A DNA stretch of 20,717 bases from a virus (UHGV-1961940); one strand, 5' to 3'. Positions 6,109 to 19,053 are shown, counted from the first letter of the stretch. The notes: generated by a model from the sequence alone, not told the origin. Numbers and translations are program-made.

Positions 6109-6450
6109 CTACTCAAGGTCTTCAGAGTCAAGCTCAAAAAGAATCAAACTGTGCATGCCTGCAGATAGATTAACACACCCTGCAACAATAAGGGTCTGAT
6201 AGTAAGGTTCAGCACCCTCAATGTCTTCGTTAAAATCCACAACAAGGTAGTCACCTTTGTTAAAGGTGTATTTGTCCGATGTAAACGCAAAACCTGCCCA
6301 GTCCCCTACTGCAGGGTCTTTATCAGTCACCTTTGTTAACAGTAGATCTTTTTCACGGGATCTTTTAGTAAAATCGTGAATCACAACATCCTTCTCTTCA
6401 GGAGTTGGATTGCCACACACGTAGTTAACTATATTTCTCCACAAACTCAT
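6109..6450 (-). CDS. Hypothetical protein (113 aa from ATG 6450; the track ORF extends to a TTG at 6492)
   Basis: ATG 6450 is preceded by GAGGGGA. It would overlap the helicase 3' end by 26 nt. The longer TTG start has no SD. No motif recognised. Confidence 0.6.
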   Translation of the reverse strand: MSLWRNIVNYVCGNPTPEEKDVVIHDFTKRSREKDLLLTKVTDKDPAVGDWAGFAFTSDKYTFNKGDYLVVDFNEDIEGAEPYYQTLIVAGCVNLSAGMHSLILFELDSEDLE

Positions 6451-7816
6451 ACGTCCCCTCTTCGGCTCTGGTTTCAAAATCTTTCCTGACAATTTTGTCT
6501 AAGTCAGGGAATGTTGTATTGTAAAACTCTACGACTCGCGGGTCAACAATAATGTCAACTTCTCTTAGTGGACGCAACAAGTTTATTCCTTGTATTGTCT
6601 TAACCCGACTCAAAGCAACATACGTCATCCCAGGAGAGAAAGCTCCGTTCTTTCCAAGGTCCAGGTTGTAACAATCTAGCGTAAGTCCTTGACTTTTATG
6701 AGATGTTACGGCATACCCAGATTTCAGAGGAAGTTGCCTGTATGACCCAATCACTACCCTCTCTATAAACTTCTCCATCTTCCTTTCTGCAATGTTGTAT
6801 CTCTGAGATGGCTTATACTCGTTATTTTCCCACAACCTCTGCTCTATGTCAACCTGTGTTCCATCTTCAAGCTCTACCACCACCGCCTTGTTCTTAAATT
6901 TAACAATTGTGGCACGTGTTCCGTTAACATAATAAGGTACTTTGTGCGTCGGGTCAACATCGTTGGCGGTTATCATAACTTTCATGCCAATTTTCAACTT
7001 CATCTCCTGCTCAACTGGCAGGGTGGAGGGAAACTTACCCTTCATTTCACCAGTGTATACCTTCTCTGGGGCGTTGATGGCATCATAGAACCTTCTGTTC
7101 ACTTCCTCTGCTTGTTTGTTGGTGGCGCAAATTGTGAGAGCGTCTGTTGGTACACCGCCTTTGTAACAGCGAGCATTAAGTTCTGCTACAACCTCTTTTA
7201 TGCGACGACCCTCACGAACACAGTTGAGCATTGTGGCAAATCGAATAGACTCCTGTCGGAACTGGTCTATTAGGGCTATGTTGTGAAGGTCCAGCTCTTT
7301 CCAAGATTCGGTATAGCAACATAGGTCTGTGTGGTAGAAGTTGAAGTAGGCCTCCTTCTCCATAGAAGAGACAACAGGAGGTGCCTGGTAAAAATCGCCA
7401 AACAATATGACCTGTATGCCTCCGAAAGGTTTGTCATTTTTTCGAAGGAAGCGGAGTTTTCTATCCATCTCTATAAACTTATCAGCACGGATCATAGAGA
7501 TTTCATCGATAATTAGGATGGTAAATGCCTTGCTTTTCAAAGGCTTTGCTGTTTTTGCCCTTATTGCAGTCCAGTCAGACTCCATGCTCACACCTGCTGC
7601 AAGATCGAAGGTTCGGTGTGCTGTTGCTCCATTAACGTTTAAAGCGGCTACCCCTGTCGGGGCAACCGTTATGCAAGAGTCTCCATACATTGACTGGATC
7701 ATGTTGATGAGGTACGTCTTCCCACAACCTGCGGGTCCTGAAACGAAGACATTCTCCCCACTCATGATTGCAACAAGGGCAGCATCTGTGCCTACATCAT
7801 ACTGCCCTTTTTCCAT
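6425..7816 (-). CDS. PIF1/RecD-like SF1B DNA helicase
   Basis: Walker A is GPAGCGKTY and Walker B is LIIDEISMI. The PIF1-type motif III is FGDFYQAPPV. YAVTSHKSQGLTLD and YVALSRV are the C-terminal SF1B motifs. The start is coupled to the rIIB-like stop (TAATG) with a GAGGAGG SD. Confidence 0.9.
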   Translation of the reverse strand: MEKGQYDVGTDAALVAIMSGENVFVSGPAGCGKTYLINMIQSMYGDSCITVAPTGVAALNVNGATAHRTFDLAAGVSMESDWTAIRAKTAKPLKSKAFTILIIDEISMIRADKFIEMDRKLRFLRKNDKPFGGIQVILFGDFYQAPPVVSSMEKEAYFNFYHTDLCCYTESWKELDLHNIALIDQFRQESIRFATMLNCVREGRRIKEVVAELNARCYKGGVPTDALTICATNKQAEEVNRRFYDAINAPEKVYTGEMKGKFPSTLPVEQEMKLKIGMKVMITANDVDPTHKVPYYVNGTRATIVKFKNKAVVVELEDGTQVDIEQRLWENNEYKPSQRYNIAERKMEKFIERVVIGSYRQLPLKSGYAVTSHKSQGLTLDCYNLDLGKNGAFSPGMTYVALSRVKTIQGINLLRPLREVDIIVDPRVVEFYNTTFPDLDKIVRKDFETRAEEGTYEFVEKYS

Positions 7817-9021
7817 TACGCCTCCTCGTAGATAATGTCGATGATGTTACCATCACGGTCAACTACGTATTCAATCGGATCGCCATCTTTGCGTGATTCC
7901 GGTGCTGCTACGATTTCGTAGCGGCATGCACGGCACTTAGCACTGTTGTGTTGGTATGGCACACTAACCACATCCGCAGGGTCAACCATAACCATCATTA
8001 CAGTGCCATAGCCCGCTGCATACTCTTTGCTGGCGCAGTGCAGGCCATAAGAACACGCAGCTTCCGGATCATCTTCTACAAAGTTACGAGGCATGGACAC
8101 AAAAGCACCCTGGTATTGTGGAACTTTACCGCTGTGCCAATCCACCCACCTGCTCCCGTTAAACTGAACCCCCTTATAGCAAATGATTCGACCATCTTCT
8201 GCAACCTGGATGTCATTAGCCTGCATGAAATCGTAGAGCATGTTCACAGATTTTGCAGACGGGTTGCGTAGCAGACGGACAAGGAATTTAACATATCGGT
8301 CGTCCAGTGTTCCATCTACATAATCTTCCTCAATTTTCTTTGCAATGGTGGATCGCATCTCTACACCGTAGTAGTAGAGCTTACCATCTTTCATGATCAG
8401 GTTGTCTGCAAGTGTGGTGAACTCATTCTTGCGTTCCAGCCAGACAAGGATTTCACCAATTGCCTCATCATATTCCTGAACAGAAATATGGTCGAAGACT
8501 TTCTGGTAAACTTCCTCACTTTCGCTGCGGCGAATTTCAAAAATGCCTTCGTTGCAGGTGATCTGGAGGAGTTCCCCGCAAATAACTACCAAAGGCTCGA
8601 TGCTTCGAGACTGTTGCTGAGACACACTGCTCACTACTTCCAGCACCGGATCTTTGACTTCTACTAAAGGTTCTTCTGACTTGATTGCTACCCCAGTGAA
8701 CCCCACACCGTGAACAACACACAGTGGGTATACCACGCCCCAACGTTTAACGGAACCTTCACCTGAATCTAAGATCATGGCGTACTTACCGTTGTCTTCC
8801 AGTCCGTAGCGGAATAAACGGGCCTCTTCGCGGGTTTCAAAATCCTCACGGGTATAGCAGACACTGTCTCGGTCAGGATCAAACAGCTCTGGGGCACCTA
8901 CTGCCAGTGTCCATGTTGTAGTACCTTTCTCAATAGCACATGTGAAACCCTTCTTCTCAAGTTCTGCACGGCGGTCGCGTGCTTCTTTACGAGTTTTGAA
9001 ATGTTCGTAGATGAAAATCAT
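7816..9021 (-). CDS. rIIB: rIIB-like protein with an N-terminal extension
   Basis: The C-terminal 200 aa align by eye with T4 rIIB. FLVRLLRNPSAKSVNMLYDFMQANDIQVAEDGRIICYKGV matches FLENLLENPSQKAVSRLFDFLVANDIEITEDGYFYAWKVV. SYGLHCASKEY...VDPADVVSVP...AKCRACRYEIV matches SRGLHVCSKSY...VHPRDVVSIP...AKMRTCQYEVV. It lies immediately downstream of the rIIA-like gene. Confidence 0.8.
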   Translation of the reverse strand: MIFIYEHFKTRKEARDRRAELEKKGFTCAIEKGTTTWTLAVGAPELFDPDRDSVCYTREDFETREEARLFRYGLEDNGKYAMILDSGEGSVKRWGVVYPLCVVHGVGFTGVAIKSEEPLVEVKDPVLEVVSSVSQQQSRSIEPLVVICGELLQITCNEGIFEIRRSESEEVYQKVFDHISVQEYDEAIGEILVWLERKNEFTTLADNLIMKDGKLYYYGVEMRSTIAKKIEEDYVDGTLDDRYVKFLVRLLRNPSAKSVNMLYDFMQANDIQVAEDGRIICYKGVQFNGSRWVDWHSGKVPQYQGAFVSMPRNFVEDDPEAACSYGLHCASKEYAAGYGTVMMVMVDPADVVSVPYQHNSAKCRACRYEIVAAPESRKDGDPIEYVVDRDGNIIDIIYEEA

Positions 9022-9031
9022 AGCTGTCTCC

Positions 9032-11014
9032 TTATTTGGTGTTATTCTTTGCGTCGATCAGTTCACGGTATTCAATCATAGCAGGAGTGTCCCAATATTT
9101 CAAGCCCACATGCTTCAAAAGTGGATATTTCTTTTCCAATCTTGCAATATAGGCCTTCCCGCACTTGACTCGGTTGGCGATTAAGATTTTGGCACGATGA
9201 TTTAGCTCACTGTGCTTCCACGCGGTGTTACCTTCCCACTTGTGGAAATGTGGCCGATAATTTCCAAAATCTTGCATGGGGATAATTTTCCCTAATTGTC
9301 TATACAGGCTGTCATATGAAGTTTCATTTGCTGCGCGAGTCAGTAAGAATTTCCAAGCATCCTCTTTCAACAAATGTTCCACATTCTTCTCTGTAACATA
9401 CTGGCAATCAGGATCAGTCCAAAGCAGACGAGATTCTGATACCAAGTACAGATCTTCACCTTCAGGAATCTGGAGTGCAGCACGCACACGGTCATAATTT
9501 TGCTGGTAGATGTTACTCAGCTGTCCCAGCCAACAACTTCCACGTTGGATATCACCCTCATAAGGAATGCAGTGCTTAATCTTCTTGAACTCTGCCTTAG
9601 TAATACGTTCACGACGGAAGTAACCATCCTTCTCAAGCTTTTTAACCCAATAACCTGGCTCGTAATGAGTTTTTGTTTCACCTTTCTTCGCAGGTCGGCG
9701 AGGGAGCTCTGATAACAATTTGACAGTATCTGCAAAGAACGGATGGTGTGCCGCCTCTTTAAACTCTTTCACCAGATCCGTGTTCCGGCAATAGAAAACG
9801 TTGCGTCCGGTGATTTCGCTTAAGTAGTTACACTTATTTCGGTTATATTTACCATCTCCGTCGTTAAATACAAGGTATACACCTCGTAAGAACTCCGACT
9901 TTCCGTAACGAGCATAGCCTATGCGGCCTTTATTTAAGCCGCCAGCGAAAATTTCACAATCGCCTAAGTCGCCAAGCCCTGTTTCTTCCCAACGGTTCCA
10001 CATAAAGTTTTTGCCGAAGATGTGTCCGAACACTCCACTATTCTTCATCATTTCACGTGCTTCTGCGGAGGTTTTTGCCGTCTCCAGTTCTGCAATAACT
10101 TCTGCCCCGCGAAGACGTATACCTTCTTTGACAAAGGCCTCCAGGCGATCCTGGAATCCACCGTCGTCATGGCCCTCTATGGTCCATTCACGCCCAGGGT
10201 TAATATTGCAATCCCCAATAGGAATTTCCACGCAGATTGCAGGGTAATCGGTCAATGTCTCCAGGAACTTGGAGCGGTAAGGTTGGTGACCCATCACAAC
10301 ACGGCTCTCATCAGAACTGGTATAACCTTTCAGGATGGTCATTTTCCAGCCATCCTTCTCGTAATGATACTGTGCCTCAACCTTGTCACCTTCTAACATC
10401 TTACTGGTCATAGGATCGGTGACGATGAACGGAAACTTCGCATAGCGTAAGCACGATGCAATAGCAGTGCAATATTTCAGGACATGCTCTTTCTTAACAT
10501 GGAACTGAACTTTTACCCCGTTGTGCTCTTCAGTCTTCCGCTCACGGATCTTGGTAACGTTTGGGATACCCTGATCCAAGAACAATAGATATGTGCTTTC
10601 AACACCATTGTGCACACTGATCACATCGAAAGTGTCCACCATACTGAACGGAGCCTTTGAACCAACACCTTTATTACCTACCAGAGCGTTGCTGTTGCGC
10701 TTGGTTGACTCCCCGAGATTCATGAAAGTGTTGCGGACCATCTCTTCTGACATGCCCAATCCAACGTCCTGCACAAAGAAGTATGGTTCAAGGTCTGTAG
10801 GAGAGTGAATGATGATCGGTACATCACCCCGTCCAGACTCAACATGGGAGTCCACAGCATTGAAGATTGGTTCACGGCAGCTTGCCAGCACCTTATCTTC
10901 GTAAATCCCTTTAATGATTAGCCCAAAAGTCTCTTTGTTCAGAGAAATTGAGCCCCTGGTGACCTCCATATTTCCGGTCAGCACTGCTTTAGTTTCATTA
11001 CTGTTTACAATCAT
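9032..11014 (-). CDS. rIIA: rIIA-like protein (N-terminal GHKL/HATPase-like fold)
   Basis: The N-terminus parallels T4 rIIA. MIVNSNETKAVLTGN matches MIITTEKETILGNG. REPIFNAVDSH matches RELITNMIDAH. FVQDVGLGMS matches VCRDFGPGMS. VGNKGVGSKAPFSMVDTFDVISVHNG matches [26 protein letters not shown]. Its size (660 aa) and its position upstream of the rIIB-like gene also fit. Confidence 0.85.
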   Translation of the reverse strand: MIVNSNETKAVLTGNMEVTRGSISLNKETFGLIIKGIYEDKVLASCREPIFNAVDSHVESGRGDVPIIIHSPTDLEPYFFVQDVGLGMSEEMVRNTFMNLGESTKRNSNALVGNKGVGSKAPFSMVDTFDVISVHNGVESTYLLFLDQGIPNVTKIRERKTEEHNGVKVQFHVKKEHVLKYCTAIASCLRYAKFPFIVTDPMTSKMLEGDKVEAQYHYEKDGWKMTILKGYTSSDESRVVMGHQPYRSKFLETLTDYPAICVEIPIGDCNINPGREWTIEGHDDGGFQDRLEAFVKEGIRLRGAEVIAELETAKTSAEAREMMKNSGVFGHIFGKNFMWNRWEETGLGDLGDCEIFAGGLNKGRIGYARYGKSEFLRGVYLVFNDGDGKYNRNKCNYLSEITGRNVFYCRNTDLVKEFKEAAHHPFFADTVKLLSELPRRPAKKGETKTHYEPGYWVKKLEKDGYFRRERITKAEFKKIKHCIPYEGDIQRGSCWLGQLSNIYQQNYDRVRAALQIPEGEDLYLVSESRLLWTDPDCQYVTEKNVEHLLKEDAWKFLLTRAANETSYDSLYRQLGKIIPMQDFGNYRPHFHKWEGNTAWKHSELNHRAKILIANRVKCGKAYIARLEKKYPLLKHVGLKYWDTPAMIEYRELIDAKNNTK

Positions 11015-11511
11015 TTATTGCGCTCCTTGTAGTAGATATGGCTCCCGAATTGAGTTGTCCTCTGCATCTTTTTTGCCCATTTCGGTCGTACTTTGGTTGT
11101 ATGGTAGTGTGTTGCTCCACCTGTTATGTCCATAGCCATGTATGCAACATGGTTGTTATTATAGACCTTTATAAGCATCTTTGCAAGACTTTTAGCGTGA
11201 TCCCATGAATCTTTTTCTGTCACCTTAAAAGTTTTGCCGTGGTTTGTCCACGAAAACTGGTTAGGTTGGTAGACAATCTTTCTTATAGTGTCTGGGTATT
11301 TAGGGTGGGATTTCCTGTTTAGTGTGGCAAACCCAGATGCCAGCATACCCATCGTGCCATCTCCTCTAGCTTCCCTGTAGATATTGCATGCCAGAATGTT
11401 TTCCTTAGTATCTGATGGCTTGCAAGTATGATATACTTTTTGTTTTGGTGCTGCAACAACAGGCAGCGATAAAAGTGCGCTCAAAATAATAGCAAAGATC
11501 TTAATTTTCAC
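11011..11511 (-). CDS. SleB/CwlJ-family cell-wall hydrolase with N-terminal signal peptide
   Basis: GTG start. The N-terminus MKIKIFAIILSALLSLPVVAAP looks like a signal peptide. The hydrolase_2-like core is ACNIYREARGD...GMLASGFATLNR...YQPNQFSW...GGATHYHT...FGSHIYY. Its stop overlaps the rIIA-like ATG (ATGA). Confidence 0.8.
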   Translation of the reverse strand: MKIKIFAIILSALLSLPVVAAPKQKVYHTCKPSDTKENILACNIYREARGDGTMGMLASGFATLNRKSHPKYPDTIRKIVYQPNQFSWTNHGKTFKVTEKDSWDHAKSLAKMLIKVYNNNHVAYMAMDITGGATHYHTTKVRPKWAKKMQRTTQFGSHIYYKERNK

Positions 11512-11520
11512 AATGACTCC

Positions 11521-11547
11521 AAATAGAAAATCCCCGCCGAAGCGGGG
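11521..11547 (-). terminator. Rho-independent terminator (minus strand)
   Basis: The minus-strand RNA reads CCCCGC-UUCG-GCGGGG followed by AUUUUCUAUUU. This is a 6-bp GC stem with a UUCG tetraloop and a U-rich tail, 14 nt after the stop of the 126-aa gene. Confidence 0.75.
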
Positions 11548-11951: not shown

Positions 11952-13136
11952 TTAAGCTTTAGCCAAAATGGCGCTAAACTCTTCACCAAACTCTTTTACA
12001 ATCTTCATCAGGTTTGGGTATGCTTTGATCAGCTGAGCAACAATCTTGTCACGCCCTTTACCGATAAGCAAGGCATTTCCTAAGGCATTAGGTTTCATCA
12101 TCGCCATAAAGACTGAGAATACAAAATCTCGGTTCTCGTCCTTGAAGTTTTCCCAAAGGAAATCGAGGAAGTTTGCCACGCAGCTGACAAGATCTTCGTC
12201 TGAGATACTTGCATTTTCCATCATATTGCGAATAGCGATACAACCTTCAGATCCAAGAATCCACAAAATGTCTGGCTGCTTAGGACCTACGTATTCTTTG
12301 CAGCCACCTGCCATAATCCGACCGATTTCCGGTAAATTACGTTTCTTGGTGTGGTAAGTCCAGATCTCTACCGCTGCAGTGTGACCAATAGCACCTTGTA
12401 GAAGAACACGGGCCATAGCGTCAGAAATAATACCGCTGTCAAAATCGTGCAAGATGTCAGATGCAGCAACCCAAGATCGTGGTGTGGCAAAAGATGGACA
12501 ATTAATCTCAGCCATAGCCTCATAATTATCAATAGCTGATGGAACTCTTTTCAGATACCCAATTACAGAGGAGTGAACCCCGTTGAGGAATGCGTAGTCC
12601 TCAATAAACACCTCTGCATTGCTTGTAACCTCTACAATGATAAAACGGTTAGCCAGAGGGGCTTCGAGCGCCGAAAGAACCGCACCATCTGTAGAACGGT
12701 TACCCGCAGCCACAAAAACAGAACCCTTAGGGAATGCATAGGTGCCGCACTTGTGGTCAAGCATAATTTGCATTGCAACCTTTTGCAGGTAGTTATCTGC
12801 ATGAGTGAGCTCATCCAGAAAGATAATTCCGCTCCAGTCAGGATCCGCAGGCCAAAATTCTGGAATTGCAAACACTGTACGTGTAGTTCCATCCGCTTCT
12901 ACAGGGATAGGTAGCCCAGATAAGTCGGCAGGATCTTTATCTGACAGTCGCACGTCAACAAGGTTGTCATCTCGCTCACCGAACATATTATCAGCGATCT
13001 GCTTCATCACCTGGCTTTTACCCACACCCATTGGTCCCAAAATTAGGACAGATCGGCTATGACGTTGGGCAAACTGAATAATAGCTGGCAACTCACGGAC
13101 AGTGATTTGACCACTTTCGAATACGTTTCTTGACAT
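11952..13136 (-). CDS. MoxR/CobS-type AAA+ ATPase (AAA_5-like)
   Basis: Walker A is ILGPMGVGKSQ and Walker B is IIFLDELTHA. The sensor-1 region is VFVAAGNRSTDG, followed by LANRF. This is a single AAA module with a helical C-terminal half. The start is coupled to the upstream stop (TAATG). Confidence 0.85.
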   Translation of the reverse strand: MSRNVFESGQITVRELPAIIQFAQRHSRSVLILGPMGVGKSQVMKQIADNMFGERDDNLVDVRLSDKDPADLSGLPIPVEADGTTRTVFAIPEFWPADPDWSGIIFLDELTHADNYLQKVAMQIMLDHKCGTYAFPKGSVFVAAGNRSTDGAVLSALEAPLANRFIIVEVTSNAEVFIEDYAFLNGVHSSVIGYLKRVPSAIDNYEAMAEINCPSFATPRSWVAASDILHDFDSGIISDAMARVLLQGAIGHTAAVEIWTYHTKKRNLPEIGRIMAGGCKEYVGPKQPDILWILGSEGCIAIRNMMENASISDEDLVSCVANFLDFLWENFKDENRDFVFSVFMAMMKPNALGNALLIGKGRDKIVAQLIKAYPNLMKIVKEFGEEFSAILAKA

Positions 13137-15634: not shown

Positions 15635-15674
15635 AAGTAAGTGCTCCTATGTTAGTTTTCTTTCGAATGGGTGC

Positions 15675-15703
15675 ACTATATTGTGGAGTTAGAGTAAAGT
15701 CAA
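15675..15703 (-). promoter_or_regulatory. Leftward sigma-70/SigA-type promoter
   Basis: The minus strand reads TTGACT (15703-15698), a 17-nt spacer, then TATAGT (15680-15675). This places a start site about 35 nt upstream of ATG 15634, so the SD lies in the leader. Confidence 0.55.
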
Positions 15704-15716
15704 CACGTTTTTGATG

Positions 15717-16758: not shown

Positions 16759-16775
16759 AGGGGCCAATGGCCCCT
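16759..16775 (+). promoter_or_regulatory. GC hairpin between the 347-aa ORF and the VWA gene (possible leaky terminator or attenuator)
   Basis: AGGGGCC-AAT-GGCCCCT forms a 7-bp stem, followed by TCTGGAGTTTTAATG. The first in-frame ATG (16767) lies in the loop. The U-tract is interrupted. Confidence 0.5.
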
Positions 16776-16787
16776 TCTGGAGTTTTA

Positions 16788-18248
16788 ATGGATAGCAGAA
16801 GTTCAGAAATCATTGCCTCGCAGAAAGATGATGCCCTGAGAATGTTGCAGGCTGCACGTATGTATCTCCTTGAAAAGCTGCCGTTTTATGGCACACTACT
16901 GTCAGGGTTGCAGTTCGTAGAAAACCACACATGGTGCTCCACCATGGCAACCGACCATAAACGCATCTATTACAGTCCTGAGTTCATTATGGGATTGGCT
17001 GATGAACGCAAGGCTATTCTTAAGGCTTCTCTAACTGACGAGCAGTTTGAGATGGCTGAAGTTTTCTATTCTCCAAAATCTGTGAAAGAGGTGGCCTTCC
17101 TTCTGTCACATGAGGTGGGGCATATTATCTGTGATCACCTAGTCCGTGGTAAAAGCTTTGAGCCGGAACTGTTCAATATTGCTTGTGATCACGTTATCAA
17201 CACAGGCCTTGTGGTTGACTTTAGCAAACCTCCTTGTGTTTTCTTCCCGAAGGGGAAAAGCACTACGTTCATGAAAGGTAAGCCTTTTGGCTTCTTAGCC
17301 AGCTGCTACTGCGACATGAAGTTTCATGGATGGATTGCTGAGAACGTTTATGCAGTTCTTGATAAGCAAAGAGATCAGAATAACGGTAAAAGTAAGAACG
17401 GTAAAGGTGAGAACTCTCAAAGTGATAAGCGACAAACCGATGATCACATGAGTGGGAACGGTGGCACCAGTGATAATCTTGGAAAGGCTATGGGGTATGA
17501 TCAGCCACAACCTGTAATCAGCCAATCTGATAAAGATCAGGCCATGCAGGACTCTGGTGATATGCTGGAGGCAGCAATGCAAGCGTCCGGAGGCCGTTGC
17601 CCTGAGGCGGTGCGTGAGTTTGTCAAGAACAGAGGTAAGCCTGTAATCAACTATATAGACATCATTAAGCAACGTATGTTGTCTAAAAGAAAGGCCGAAC
17701 TGACCTACAGAAAACCTGGTCGCCGATCTGGGTCTTTGACCAGCACAATGCGAAAAGTTGGGGCTATAAACAAGAACCAGCACGTTATTGTTCCTGGTCG
17801 TAATCCGGAAAACACTATAGATATTGTGGTGGCTTTAGACGTTTCTGGCTCGATCTCTCAAAGAACTTTAAAGAAAATGTTCAATGAAATCACCGGATTG
17901 TGCAATCTGTATAAAGAGTTTAAGGTTACAATGTTCTGTTGGTCAACTGAGGTTGGAGAGGTTAAAGTATACACTCGCGGCAACATAGACGAGATGGTCA
18001 ACTATGAGGTCCACTCAACATGGGGCACAACAGCTGCTTGCGTGTTCGAGTATCTGGATGCCAACATACCTAATGCAAAAGATGTCATCGTCCTGACCGA
18101 CCTATACTTTGAGCATAACTTTGAACAAAAGGTTGTTGACAACAAGTGGAAAAAGTACGATACTCTATGGGTCCTCACTGAGGGGTATAATAAAAATTAT
18201 ATCCCGAGCTTTGGGAAAACTGTGGAATTAATCGAGTACGCTAAGTAA
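16788..18248 (+). CDS. Putative metallopeptidase-VWA fusion protein (DUF2201-like), the typical partner of MoxR AAA+ ATPases
   Basis: The HExxH zinc motif is SHEVGHIICDH in the N-terminal half. A long Q/N/S/D/G-rich linker follows. The C-terminal VWA has the MIDAS motif VALDVSGS. ATG 16788 has a GGAG SD 5 nt upstream. The alternative ATG 16767 sits in the hairpin loop. Confidence 0.85.
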   Translation: MDSRSSEIIASQKDDALRMLQAARMYLLEKLPFYGTLLSGLQFVENHTWCSTMATDHKRIYYSPEFIMGLADERKAILKASLTDEQFEMAEVFYSPKSVKEVAFLLSHEVGHIICDHLVRGKSFEPELFNIACDHVINTGLVVDFSKPPCVFFPKGKSTTFMKGKPFGFLASCYCDMKFHGWIAENVYAVLDKQRDQNNGKSKNGKGENSQSDKRQTDDHMSGNGGTSDNLGKAMGYDQPQPVISQSDKDQAMQDSGDMLEAAMQASGGRCPEAVREFVKNRGKPVINYIDIIKQRMLSKRKAELTYRKPGRRSGSLTSTMRKVGAINKNQHVIVPGRNPENTIDIVVALDVSGSISQRTLKKMFNEITGLCNLYKEFKVTMFCWSTEVGEVKVYTRGNIDEMVNYEVHSTWGTTAACVFEYLDANIPNAKDVIVLTDLYFEHNFEQKVVDNKWKKYDTLWVLTEGYNKNYIPSFGKTVELIEYAK

Positions 18249-18263
18249 GAGAGGAGGTTATTT

Positions 18264-18527
18264 ATGGCAACAGAGTTAAAATTTGCATCAAACCGTAAAA
18301 CTAAGAAGTATCTGTCCTCAGTAGCTCCAGGCACTGTGGTGATGTTTGTTGATGAACTTGGGGATGTGAATACAGCACTTGTTGTAAAATCACATCCTGC
18401 AAACATATATGTTGGGGTATTTGACCTGTTCAGAAAGGTGTTTGTAGAACTGCCTCACAGTTTGGTTGTTACAGAAATGGATGCCTGCATAGAAATTCTT
18501 GGCGAAGTTATGGTGGAGGAACAATAA
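18264..18527 (+). CDS. Small protein, paralog 1 of a four-gene tandem family (87 aa)
   Basis: SD is GAGGAGG. It shares the pattern K..f..G.VV....d......mvV.......fDl......L.....Vte.D..I.IlGE with the next gene. Confidence 0.7.
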   Translation: MATELKFASNRKTKKYLSSVAPGTVVMFVDELGDVNTALVVKSHPANIYVGVFDLFRKVFVELPHSLVVTEMDACIEILGEVMVEEQ

Positions 18528-18790
18528 TGGCTACCAGCATTGTATTCAATTCTAAGGTGAAGAACAAAAAGCGTGCAGACAGTTTTCCGTGTGGGACCGT
18601 GGTAAGTTGCGACGGAGACGGCATTCAAAACATAGTTATGATTGTCAAAACAGGAGAACATTGTGTGTGGGGGTTCGATTTAGAAAATAATGAGTTGTAC
18701 GATCTGCCGCCAAACATGAAAGTTACAGAGCTTGACACCAAAATTACCATCCTTGGAGAGACAAGCTATTCAAAAGAAGGAGGAGAATAA
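18527..18790 (+). CDS. Small protein, paralog 2 (87 aa)
   Basis: TAATG coupling to the previous gene. Same length and pattern as paralog 1 (MAT..., GTVV, FDL, VTE(M/L)D, ILGE). Confidence 0.7.
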   Translation: MATSIVFNSKVKNKKRADSFPCGTVVSCDGDGIQNIVMIVKTGEHCVWGFDLENNELYDLPPNMKVTELDTKITILGETSYSKEGGE

Positions 18791-19053
18791 TGACCACAAA
18801 AATCACTATCGCAGAACCGAAAGCTAACACTCAGCCTATCGAAAAGTTTAAGTACGGTGAGGTGGTAACATTCACACCAGATAATGAAGATGCTAAGATT
18901 TTCGCAATGGTCACAGCTGAGTGGATGTGTGACAACACCACACAGGTTCTGCGTTTTGACACCTATCTTACCGATGAAATCAGGAACGACAAGATTGTGA
19001 CTGGTGTGGATACTGAGATTGTTTTCTACAAGAGCTTTTTAGAGGGTTTCTGA
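18790..19053 (+). CDS. Small protein, paralog 3 (87 aa, more divergent)
   Basis: TAATG coupling and the same length. Retains K(F/Y)..GEVVTF...FAMV...RFD...VTGVDTEI. Confidence 0.65.
   Translation: MTTKITIAEPKANTQPIEKFKYGEVVTFTPDNEDAKIFAMVTAEWMCDNTTQVLRFDTYLTDEIRNDKIVTGVDTEIVFYKSFLEGF

Follow-up and report, generated by a model that had tools for sequence, protein, structure and literature searches.

The window analysed here, a 20,717-nt stretch of viral DNA (UHGV-1961940), carries four consecutive open reading frames (ORFs) on the minus strand between 6425 and 11511, which in reading order encode a cell-wall hydrolase precursor of the SleB/CwlJ fold, homologs of the phage T4 proteins rIIA and rIIB, and a Dda/PIF1-like helicase (Table 1). 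The hydrolase ORF starts with GTG at 11511–11509, preceded by a Shine-Dalgarno (SD) sequence, GGAG, at 11520–11517, and its stop codon TGA (11013–11011) shares bases with the ATG of rIIA (11014–11012) to form ATGA. The stop codon of rIIA (9034–9032) is followed by a 10-nt spacer, GGAGACAGCT, and then by the rIIB ATG at 9021, while the TAA of rIIB (7818–7816) has one base in common with the helicase ATG (7816–7814), giving TAATG. A stop/start overlap or a very short spacer is found in this way at every junction, and the arrangement is kept within the phage genus to which the window belongs (see below). The rIIA, rIIB, and helicase ORFs each have an SD of their own, that of rIIA being AAGGAG, 8 nt upstream. 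The extent of the block, the three junctions, and a terminator preceding it had been given in a first-pass annotation made from the sequence alone; these, and the minus-strand order of the ORFs, were confirmed by reading.

Table 1. Coordinates of the features discussed. Positions are those of the window, except for the last seven rows, which are given as locus:position in homologous loci. TMD, transmembrane domain; AF2, AlphaFold2; SF1, superfamily 1; MAG, metagenome-assembled genome.
Feature	Position	Strand	Details and basis
SleB/CwlJ-fold (Hydrolase_2) cell-wall hydrolase precursor	11011–11511	-	166 aa; Pfam, PHROG, PDB, AF2
rIIA homolog	9032–11014	-	660 aa; PHROG 612, T4 rIIA
rIIB homolog	7816–9021	-	401 aa; PHROG 609, T4 rIIB
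Dda/PIF1-like SF1 helicase	6425–7816	-	463 aa; Pfam PIF1, PHROG 325
Intrinsic-terminator-like hairpin and T-rich tail	11521–11547	-	stem 11547–11532, TTCG loop; scan and reading
Predicted Sec signal peptide, aa 1–20	11452–11511	-	MKIKIFAIILSALLSLPVVA, predicted cleavage VVA↓AP
Glu47 codon of SleB-like hydrolase	11371–11373	-	alignment to Bacillus SleB motif YGESRGE
MoxR-type AAA ATPase, upstream, transcribed in the block's direction	11952–13136	-	PHROG 1297, E = 2e-110
Non-phage Blautia (Lachnospiraceae) segment	10–732	-	nucleotide identity to Blautia MAG contig
Small TMD gene after SleB gene	L004:6429–6617
Small TMD gene after SleB gene	L009:6429–6671
Small TMD gene after SleB gene	L008:6452–6625
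Small TMD gene after SleB gene	L014:7506–7661
Small TMD gene after SleB gene	L015:7511–7744
Small TMD gene after SleB gene	L019:7510–7707
Small TMD gene after SleB gene	L037:7516–7713

The terminator-like element, a CCCCGC-TTCG-GCGGGG hairpin with a T-rich tail (local fold z = –2.3), lies 20 nt upstream of the hydrolase start codon. It is retained in phages ime and EmilHeitz and in two IMG/VR relatives, and the GenBank record of phage EdH4 annotates the same hairpin as a terminator. Relatives with as little as 89% nucleotide identity still have the hairpin, the GTG start, its SD, and the ATGA overlap, and we therefore regard the hairpin, the start codon, and the overlap as features rather than products of chance. 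There is no space for a promoter between the hairpin and the start codon, so that the downstream genes would be read by way of terminator read-through or from internal promoters. A scan for sigma-70 promoters returned 22 sites against 23.7 expected from shuffled sequences; because this count is no higher than that of the shuffles, promoter-like matches, including one at 11186–11158 inside the SleB-like gene, were not used as evidence. The rV5 paper places the genes of the block in a long unit (genes 10-1-238-164) that starts at a bidirectional promoter region beside an anti-sigma-like gene, a region corresponding to 15640–15710 of the window. A literature search for Vequintavirus infection time-course data found none, and the early expression put forward in the first-pass annotation is accordingly a conjecture.

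On nucleotide identity the window is a Vequintavirus, that is, an rV5-like virulent myophage of E. coli. Over 5.6 kb the sequence shares 99.1% identity with Escherichia phage ime (Vequintavirus murica) and 96–98% with ~100 other rV5-like coliphages. A nucleotide search matched 121 phage records, 83 of them covering at least 80% of the query with the same annotated genes. The block is already known, more than 100 GenBank genomes being annotated with a cell wall hydrolase, rIIA, rIIB, and helicase. In ime (MN850576, ime_151–154), EdH4 (MK327930, EdH4_00061–64), and Bas54 (bas54_0065–0068), the same genes, already annotated there, stand in the same order with the same overlaps and upstream terminator, at 96.9–99.1% DNA and 96.5–99.5% protein identity to the window, which departs from them only by point differences, a longer helicase ORF, and a Blautia segment.

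This placement does not agree with the host suggested earlier. The first-pass annotation had linked the SleB-type enzyme to Firmicutes and had read a neighbouring 'Firmicutes-like permease fragment' as a further host clue; the phage proved to be an E. coli Vequintavirus, and the fragment proved to be Blautia DNA joined inside the phage DNA polymerase gene. A tblastn search with the hydrolase against phage records matched 1329 records; the ten host names listed most often were without exception those of Gram-negative genera, with Escherichia, Salmonella, Pseudomonas, Klebsiella, and Vibrio at the head. The Firmicutes hint arose because the contig end is chimeric. The non-phage segment has 99.4% nucleotide identity to an uncultured Blautia MAG contig (CAKRWH010000004.1) and 100% identity over 237 aa, and the gene it carries gives a weak match to MacB_PCD (MacB-like permease domain) together with a coiled-coil region. 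Vequintavirus genomes match only from base 781 onwards, a position within the DNA polymerase gene, which the junction truncates to a 161-codon ORF (711–1196); ~48 bases at the junction (about 733–780) match neither Blautia nor phage. The contig is chimeric, most likely through an artefact of metagenome assembly. Sixteen unannotated GenBank records labelled 'Campylobacter phage' (e.g. MG065635, MG065659, and MG065662) also match the block; C. jejuni is given as the host in 15 of the 16, and four listed records are 96.5–97.3% identical to the block, which suggests mislabelled or contaminant genomes in that submission.

The assignment of the first ORF to the SleB/CwlJ-type hydrolases, made in the first-pass annotation together with an export signal, was upheld by several lines of comparison. 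The protein matched Pfam Hydrolase_2 (PF07486) over model positions 2–100 of 100 (E = 2e-19; 70.5 bits, cut-off 27) and PHROG 938 'endolysin' (E = 9e-28), and a phmmer search of PDB sequences returned only SleB catalytic domains (4F55, E = 2.5e-6). An AF2 model, built on 11 sequences (the large protein search gave 10 clusters), had a predicted local distance difference test score (pLDDT) of 88.6 and a predicted TM-score (pTM) of 0.80, and Foldseek matched it in the PDB, at E < 0.001, only to the SleB catalytic domains 4F55 and 4FET (probability 1.0). Glu47 aligned by phmmer with the Glu of YGESRGE in 4F55 and 4FET, within a YxE(A/S)RG motif, and was invariant or nearly so in two homolog alignments; we take the Glu of this motif to be the catalytic residue of Bacillus SleB. 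The hydrolase thus has the catalytic-domain fold (target-normalised TM 0.70–0.77) and the aligned motif Glu in common with Bacillus SleB, but the two are ~20% identical, and the window protein is encoded by a phage of a Gram-negative host. Because it scores below the cut-off of the NCBIfam spore_SleB equivalog TIGR02869 (48.9 against 236.5 bits) and no N-terminal peptidoglycan-binding domain was detected in the Pfam scan, we classify it, from these profile and fold comparisons, as a distant member of the SleB fold family and not as a SleB ortholog. E. coli peptidoglycan is not known to contain the muramic-delta-lactam that Bacillus SleB requires.

The hydrolase is full length in 116 of 116 records, with protein identities of 95–99%. 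Codon differences from the most distant congener (L013) number 37 synonymous and 11 non-synonymous, a ratio indicating that the gene is under purifying selection. Homologs were surveyed by tblastn against phage records and in IMG/VR loci. The protein has two conserved cysteines, C30 and C42, the first of which is missing from the T5 homolog. Homologs have been stated for all Vequintavirinae genera, and expression of the one from Certrevirus CB7, CB7_83, proved toxic to E. coli (Buttimer et al., 2020; PMC7344957), an indirect hint of muralytic activity.

Export was assessed by the usual features of Sec (signal peptidase I) substrates, namely a positive n-region, a 7–15-residue h-region, small residues at –3/–1, and no lipobox. 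Read by hand and by hydropathy, the N-terminus (MKIKIFAIILSALLSLPVVA↓APKQK) begins with a positive MK-IK, continues with IFAIILSALLSL, and ends in PVVA↓A, with a 12-residue h-region of mean Kyte-Doolittle hydropathy 2.79 and a V-V-A site ahead of residue 21; a Sec signal peptide is therefore predicted. In signal-anchor-release (SAR) endolysins, by comparison, the N-terminal TMD is weakly hydrophobic, is rich in Gly/Ala/Ser, and lacks a cleavage site, a description that does not fit a segment with 35% Gly/Ala/Ser/Thr, a hydropathy of 2.79, and a good V-x-A site. Exported endolysins of both kinds are known, Lys44 of Oenococcus phage fOg44 being a signal-peptide endolysin and P1 Lyz and phage 21 R being SAR endolysins. 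With these the window's hydrolase, if exported as predicted, would have a holin-independent, Sec-dependent route in common; they are, however, working endolysins of other folds, whereas the SleB-like enzyme is dispensable beside a canonical, essential endolysin (see below). The n-h-c layout, with differing residues and with small residues at –3/–1, recurs in the Certrevirus, Avunavirus, Seunavirus-like, phi92-like, and T5 homologs. By a simple hydropathy criterion, a signal-like N-terminus was present in 59 of 86 further homologs, and many of the remainder had a hydrophobic N-terminal segment, some of them SAR-like. A signal peptide has also been reported for CB7_83 (PMC7344957).

The identification of the next two genes as rIIA and rIIB, also proposed earlier, was borne out by profile searches and by homology to T4. 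The first of the two matched PHROG 612 over residues 1–656 (E = 2.6e-123) and T4 rIIA at 28% identity over 198 aa (E = 1e-21), and has an N-terminal GHKL-type ATPase-like domain (Pfam HATPase_c_3, E = 1.7e-8). The second matched PHROG 609 (E = 2.4e-60) and T4 rIIB at 36% identity over 204 aa (E = 2e-38), and consists of a conserved C-terminal core (about aa 130–375) and a lineage-specific N-terminal extension. The orthologs in EdH4, a phage of the same species as ime, are 99.5% (rIIA) and 97.8% (rIIB) identical to them, and knockdown of EdH4 rIIA/rIIB by CRISPRi-ART lowered plating on E. coli expressing lambda RexAB and had no effect without Rex (PMC11879866). By analogy with these orthologs, the rIIA and rIIB of the window are regarded as counter-defence proteins directed against Rex-type abortive infection. 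The T4 and EdH4 proteins have a Rex-dependent phenotype in common, and the cores are homologous. The resemblance to T4 rIIA/rIIB ('membrane integrity protectors'), at 28–36% identity, nevertheless extends over part of the length only, the N-terminus of rIIB is HTH-like (helix-turn-helix) in T4 and gives a marginal SPOR-like match in the window, and the T4 genes have no muralytic neighbour. According to the BASEL and gasdermin papers the mechanism of rII is still unclear, and other defences can sense rIIB; expression of rIIB is toxic to E. coli.

The N-terminal extension of rIIB was looked at separately. Residues 1–50 (8872–9021), scanned alone, gave a marginal, half-length Pfam SPOR match (22.5 bits, cut-off 21), and a similar stretch occurs at residues about 55–97. 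A single-sequence AF2 model of the N-terminal 130 aa was too poor for a fold search (pLDDT 44.7); residues 3–42 formed a beta-alpha-beta-beta unit at moderate confidence, and no structure was seen past them. The protein itself lacks an export signal.

We asked whether the SleB-like hydrolase is the endolysin of the phage. In the closest relatives a separate 156-aa lysin is encoded ~67–70 kb away, adjoining a DNA ligase gene. This lysin is of the lambda R type (E = 3e-56 to PDB 1AM7, lambda R lysozyme) and is 100% identical between ime and EmilHeitz, and i- and o-spanin genes adjoin the terminase gene in the relatives. In the rV5 paper, too, the lysin is given as another protein, Gp89, and the lysis genes are said to be dispersed. 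Among coding-strand ORFs of at least 20 aa inside or beside the SleB-like gene, none had a TMD, and the block holds no holin-like ORF, in agreement with the first-pass annotation, which had seen no holin nearby; a canonical holin-endolysin-spanin cluster is not found at the hydrolase. Genetic data are available for Bas54 (MaxBurger), the SleB-like protein of which is 98.8% identical to that of the window. In the transposon insertion data of the HIDEN-SEQ preprint, the SleB-like gene bas54_0065 was disrupted at 32 of its 36 TA sites, and 90/101, 56/59, and 66/73 sites were disrupted in rIIA, rIIB, and the helicase gene, respectively; all four genes were called non-essential. By contrast, the lambda-R-type endolysin gene had 0 insertion reads over 24 sites, and both spanin genes had 0 insertions. 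On a clinical isolate, in the tables examined from the same preprint, the MoxR ATPase and the helicase turned essential and the hydrolase, rIIA, and rIIB did not. Because the hydrolase gene can be disrupted and the endolysin and spanin genes cannot, we conclude that the hydrolase is accessory and unable to replace the endolysin. The earlier suggestion that it is not the canonical endolysin therefore stands, given the separate lysin of the relatives and the insertion data.

The opposite possibility, that the SleB-like enzyme is the real endolysin, of a signal-peptide or SAR type working without a canonical holin, draws on homologs with SAR-like or signal-like N-termini in many smaller phage contigs, where they may be the sole lysin, on the class II holin candidate that overlaps the hydrolase gene in Certrevirus, and on Pharokka-style annotations, which name the hydrolase 'endolysin'. 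Against it stand the lambda-R-type lysin of the closest relatives, the naming of Gp89 in rV5, and above all the free disruption of the hydrolase in Bas54, where an intact SleB-like gene did not make the endolysin gene tolerant of insertions. We rejected this possibility as contradicted by the insertion data, and consider it extremely improbable. Bas54 bas54_0115 is annotated 'putative holin' (123 aa, two N-terminal TMDs), with an ortholog in EmilHeitz, bas49_0116 (L011:38483–38854). Directly downstream of the lambda-R-like lysin gene ime_22 lies ime_23 (L094:15530–15736), encoding 68 aa with a signal/lipoprotein-like N-terminus (MKDFLLAILFMVACLSCG...); its Bas54 counterpart, bas54_0201, tolerates insertions.

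The relation between the hydrolase and the rII genes was examined by synteny in 87 loci with SleB homologs (7 from GenBank and 80 from IMG/VR). Within 7 kb of the SleB gene, rIIA/rIIB occurred in 7 of the 87 loci, which belong to Vequintavirus, Avunavirus, and Seunavirus-like/Klebsiella-phage relatives and encode SleB proteins at least 53% identical to that of the window. Adjacency of the hydrolase to the helicase is spread more widely than its adjacency to rII, and across Vequintavirinae its conserved downstream neighbour is the helicase rather than rII. In Certrevirus CR8 and Serratia phage Kashira the hydrolase lies directly upstream of the same helicase with no adjacent rII, and Certrevirus CB7 has no rII homologs anywhere (PMC7344957); in phi92-like phages and T5 the hydrolase gene has no rII genes near it. 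Only Vequintavirus shows the stop/start overlap: in Avunavirus Av-05 the hydrolase and rIIA genes are 20 nt apart, and in Seunavirus-like phages another gene lies between them.

In Certrevirus CB7 the hydrolase gene CB7_83, with the overlapping class II holin candidate CB7_82 (PMC7344957), stands ahead of the helicase gene at the orthologous position, and the homolog in Certrevirus CR8 is 46% identical to the window's hydrolase; in that genus the hydrolase is followed by a 62–65-aa protein with two TMDs and there is no rIIA/rIIB, whereas in the window there is no membrane protein and rIIA follows by the ATGA overlap. More generally, across most genera of Vequintavirinae the SleB gene is followed or overlapped by a gene for a 51–80-aa protein that has one or two predicted TMDs; such a gene was seen in Certrevirus-like phages, Kashira, Seunavirus-like phages, and a Klebsiella-phage-like locus, and is absent from the window and Vequintavirus and from Avunavirus (Av-05). 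It has been proposed to be a class II holin (Buttimer et al., 2020; PMC7344957). As judged from gene order, the ancestral state was most likely an exported lysin paired with a holin-like protein; one branch has rII, and Vequintavirus and Avunavirus would have lost the small membrane protein. The T5 protein 'sleb' (AAX12015), from a different family (Demerecviridae) with no rII genes nearby, is 41% identical to the window's hydrolase over an aligned 78% of the protein and has a signal-like N-terminus; its gene is surrounded by putative early promoters and well separated from the holin and M15-peptidase endolysin genes, and T5-like Salmonella phages have SleB-domain 'second endolysins'.

The first-pass annotation had suggested an envelope-directed module made up of the hydrolase and rIIA/rIIB, translated together and acting in wall remodelling, lysis timing, or exclusion; such a module would make its products in a fixed ratio. 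The ATGA overlap and the SleB-rIIA-rIIB-helicase order kept in Vequintavirus, Avunavirus, and Seunavirus-like phages speak for such a module, as does the fact that all three products are envelope-related in some way, rIIB being toxic and rII countering a membrane-depolarising defence. The overlap is, however, limited to Vequintavirus; Certrevirus and Kashira have the hydrolase at the same position without adjacent rII, CB7 having none at all, and the phi92-like phages and T5 likewise have none adjacent; T4 has rII without a SleB-like neighbour; and rIIA has a strong SD of its own. In Bas54, insertions in the SleB-like gene and in rII alike were without effect on K-12 and, in the tables examined, on one clinical isolate. 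As rII adjoins the hydrolase in 7 of 87 loci, all from the closest genera, and the hydrolase is kept without rII elsewhere, the proposed module found weak support and we consider it unlikely; a genuine functional link between the hydrolase and rII is equally doubtful. The ATGA overlap, the 10-nt spacer with its SD, and TAATG represent the compact operon packing of the genus and are not evidence that the hydrolase and rII act jointly.

Taken together, the locus is probably a standard Vequintavirus hydrolase-rIIA-rIIB-helicase segment of the replication-side transcription unit, in which the hydrolase is an exported accessory enzyme and rII serves against Rex. The hydrolase precursor would be expressed at a low level, since its gene starts with GTG and follows a terminator so closely that no promoter fits between them. 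It would be exported by Sec and cleaved after Ala20, leaving a predicted 146-aa basic (pI about 10) periplasmic enzyme with the lytic-transglycosylase-type fold of SleB/CwlJ. From the fold and the aligned residue, this enzyme is predicted to cleave glycan strands with Glu47 as the catalytic acid, and it may act on the sacculus independently of a holin. Terminal lysis would be carried out, as in Bas54, by the cytoplasmic lambda-R-type transglycosylase and the i- and o-spanins, and rIIA/rIIB would guard against Rex-type abortive infection, as in EdH4.

Several points weigh against this interpretation. The hosts on which the genes proved non-essential were laboratory E. coli K-12 and, in the tables examined, one clinical isolate, and the insertion data come from a preprint. 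The separate endolysin of the window's phage is taken from relatives 97–99% identical to it, and the signal-peptide call combines hand-applied rules with a report on a 46%-identical homolog. The 'putative holin' bas54_0115 is also dispensable in Bas54 (HIDEN-SEQ preprint), which implies that some other protein is the real holin. Finally, the hydrolase is under purifying selection and is kept in three phage subfamilies, so that 'spare lysin' is not a full explanation.

Because it is conserved in three subfamilies yet dispensable in the laboratory, a conditional role of the hydrolase is plausible. One form of this would be a non-lytic or conditional periplasmic function, with the protein perhaps tethered to the membrane rather than cleaved; examples would be blocking superinfection or lysis from without, local opening of the peptidoglycan to serve a process of the phage or the host, or action in hosts or growth states with altered peptidoglycan. 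In favour of this idea, purifying selection acts on a laboratory-dispensable gene, which Vequintavirinae, Stephanstirmvirinae, and T5-like phages alike retain and which in none of them lies within the structural region; the annotated putative early promoters flanking the T5 homolog also fit, as does the company of accessory genes that include a MoxR ATPase with an anti-defence phenotype. The intact catalytic Glu and fold argue instead for muralytic activity, the N-terminus (35% Gly/Ala/Ser/Thr, good V-x-A site) is closer to a cleavable signal than to a SAR anchor, and hydrolase insertions were not depleted on the clinical isolate in the preprint tables examined. We hold such a role to be rather improbable, although not negligible. 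Of a similarly low order is the likelihood that the hydrolase is a conditionally important periplasmic effector co-expressed with rIIA/rIIB in an envelope-protecting or counter-defence programme, which could, for example, offset envelope-sensing abortive infection, exclude superinfecting phages, or lyse cells with altered peptidoglycan. If true, this would explain why three subfamilies of large virulent coliphages retain the gene outside their structural and lysis genes. That the hydrolase is instead a decaying remnant of a lost secondary lysis cassette, with no present function, would accord with the loss of the membrane-protein partner in the genus, with the GTG start behind a terminator, and with non-essentiality. 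It is very unlikely in view of the full-length protein in all 116 records at 95–99% identity, the 37:11 ratio of synonymous to non-synonymous differences, and the conservation of the start codon, SD, and catalytic residue.

The practical value of the analysis is mostly corrective: the block is well annotated, its rII genes are anti-Rex, the hydrolase is dispensable, and the Firmicutes link comes from a chimeric contig. It raises the question why Vequintavirinae, phi92-like, and T5-like phages keep a SleB-fold hydrolase, predicted to be secreted, beside a conventional endolysin. The answer would be relevant to the handling of the cell wall by large virulent phages ahead of lysis and to the choice of lysins for enzybiotic work.

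Among the neighbouring genes, the helicase matched Pfam PIF1 (E = 1e-32) and the Dda-like helicases of PHROG 325 (E = 7e-112). It is 463 aa long in the window and 456 aa in Bas54 and EdH4, the 7 extra codons (6425–6445) extending into the gene that follows, either as a small divergence or through an error of sequencing. According to the HIDEN-SEQ preprint, the Bas54 ortholog of the MoxR ATPase, bas54_0063, is conditionally essential on the clinical E. coli isolate and is assigned to countering a predicted defence system, DS-28, and the Bas54 helicase is conditionally essential on the same isolate. The MoxR ATPase gene and a gene for a DUF2201 metallopeptidase/VWA protein (16767–18248, plus strand) flank the divergent promoter region. 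Beyond the latter, 18264–19053 on the plus strand holds three back-to-back 87-aa ORFs (18264–18527, 18527–18790, and 18790–19053) with similar N-termini, which look like a tandem triplication of a small gene.

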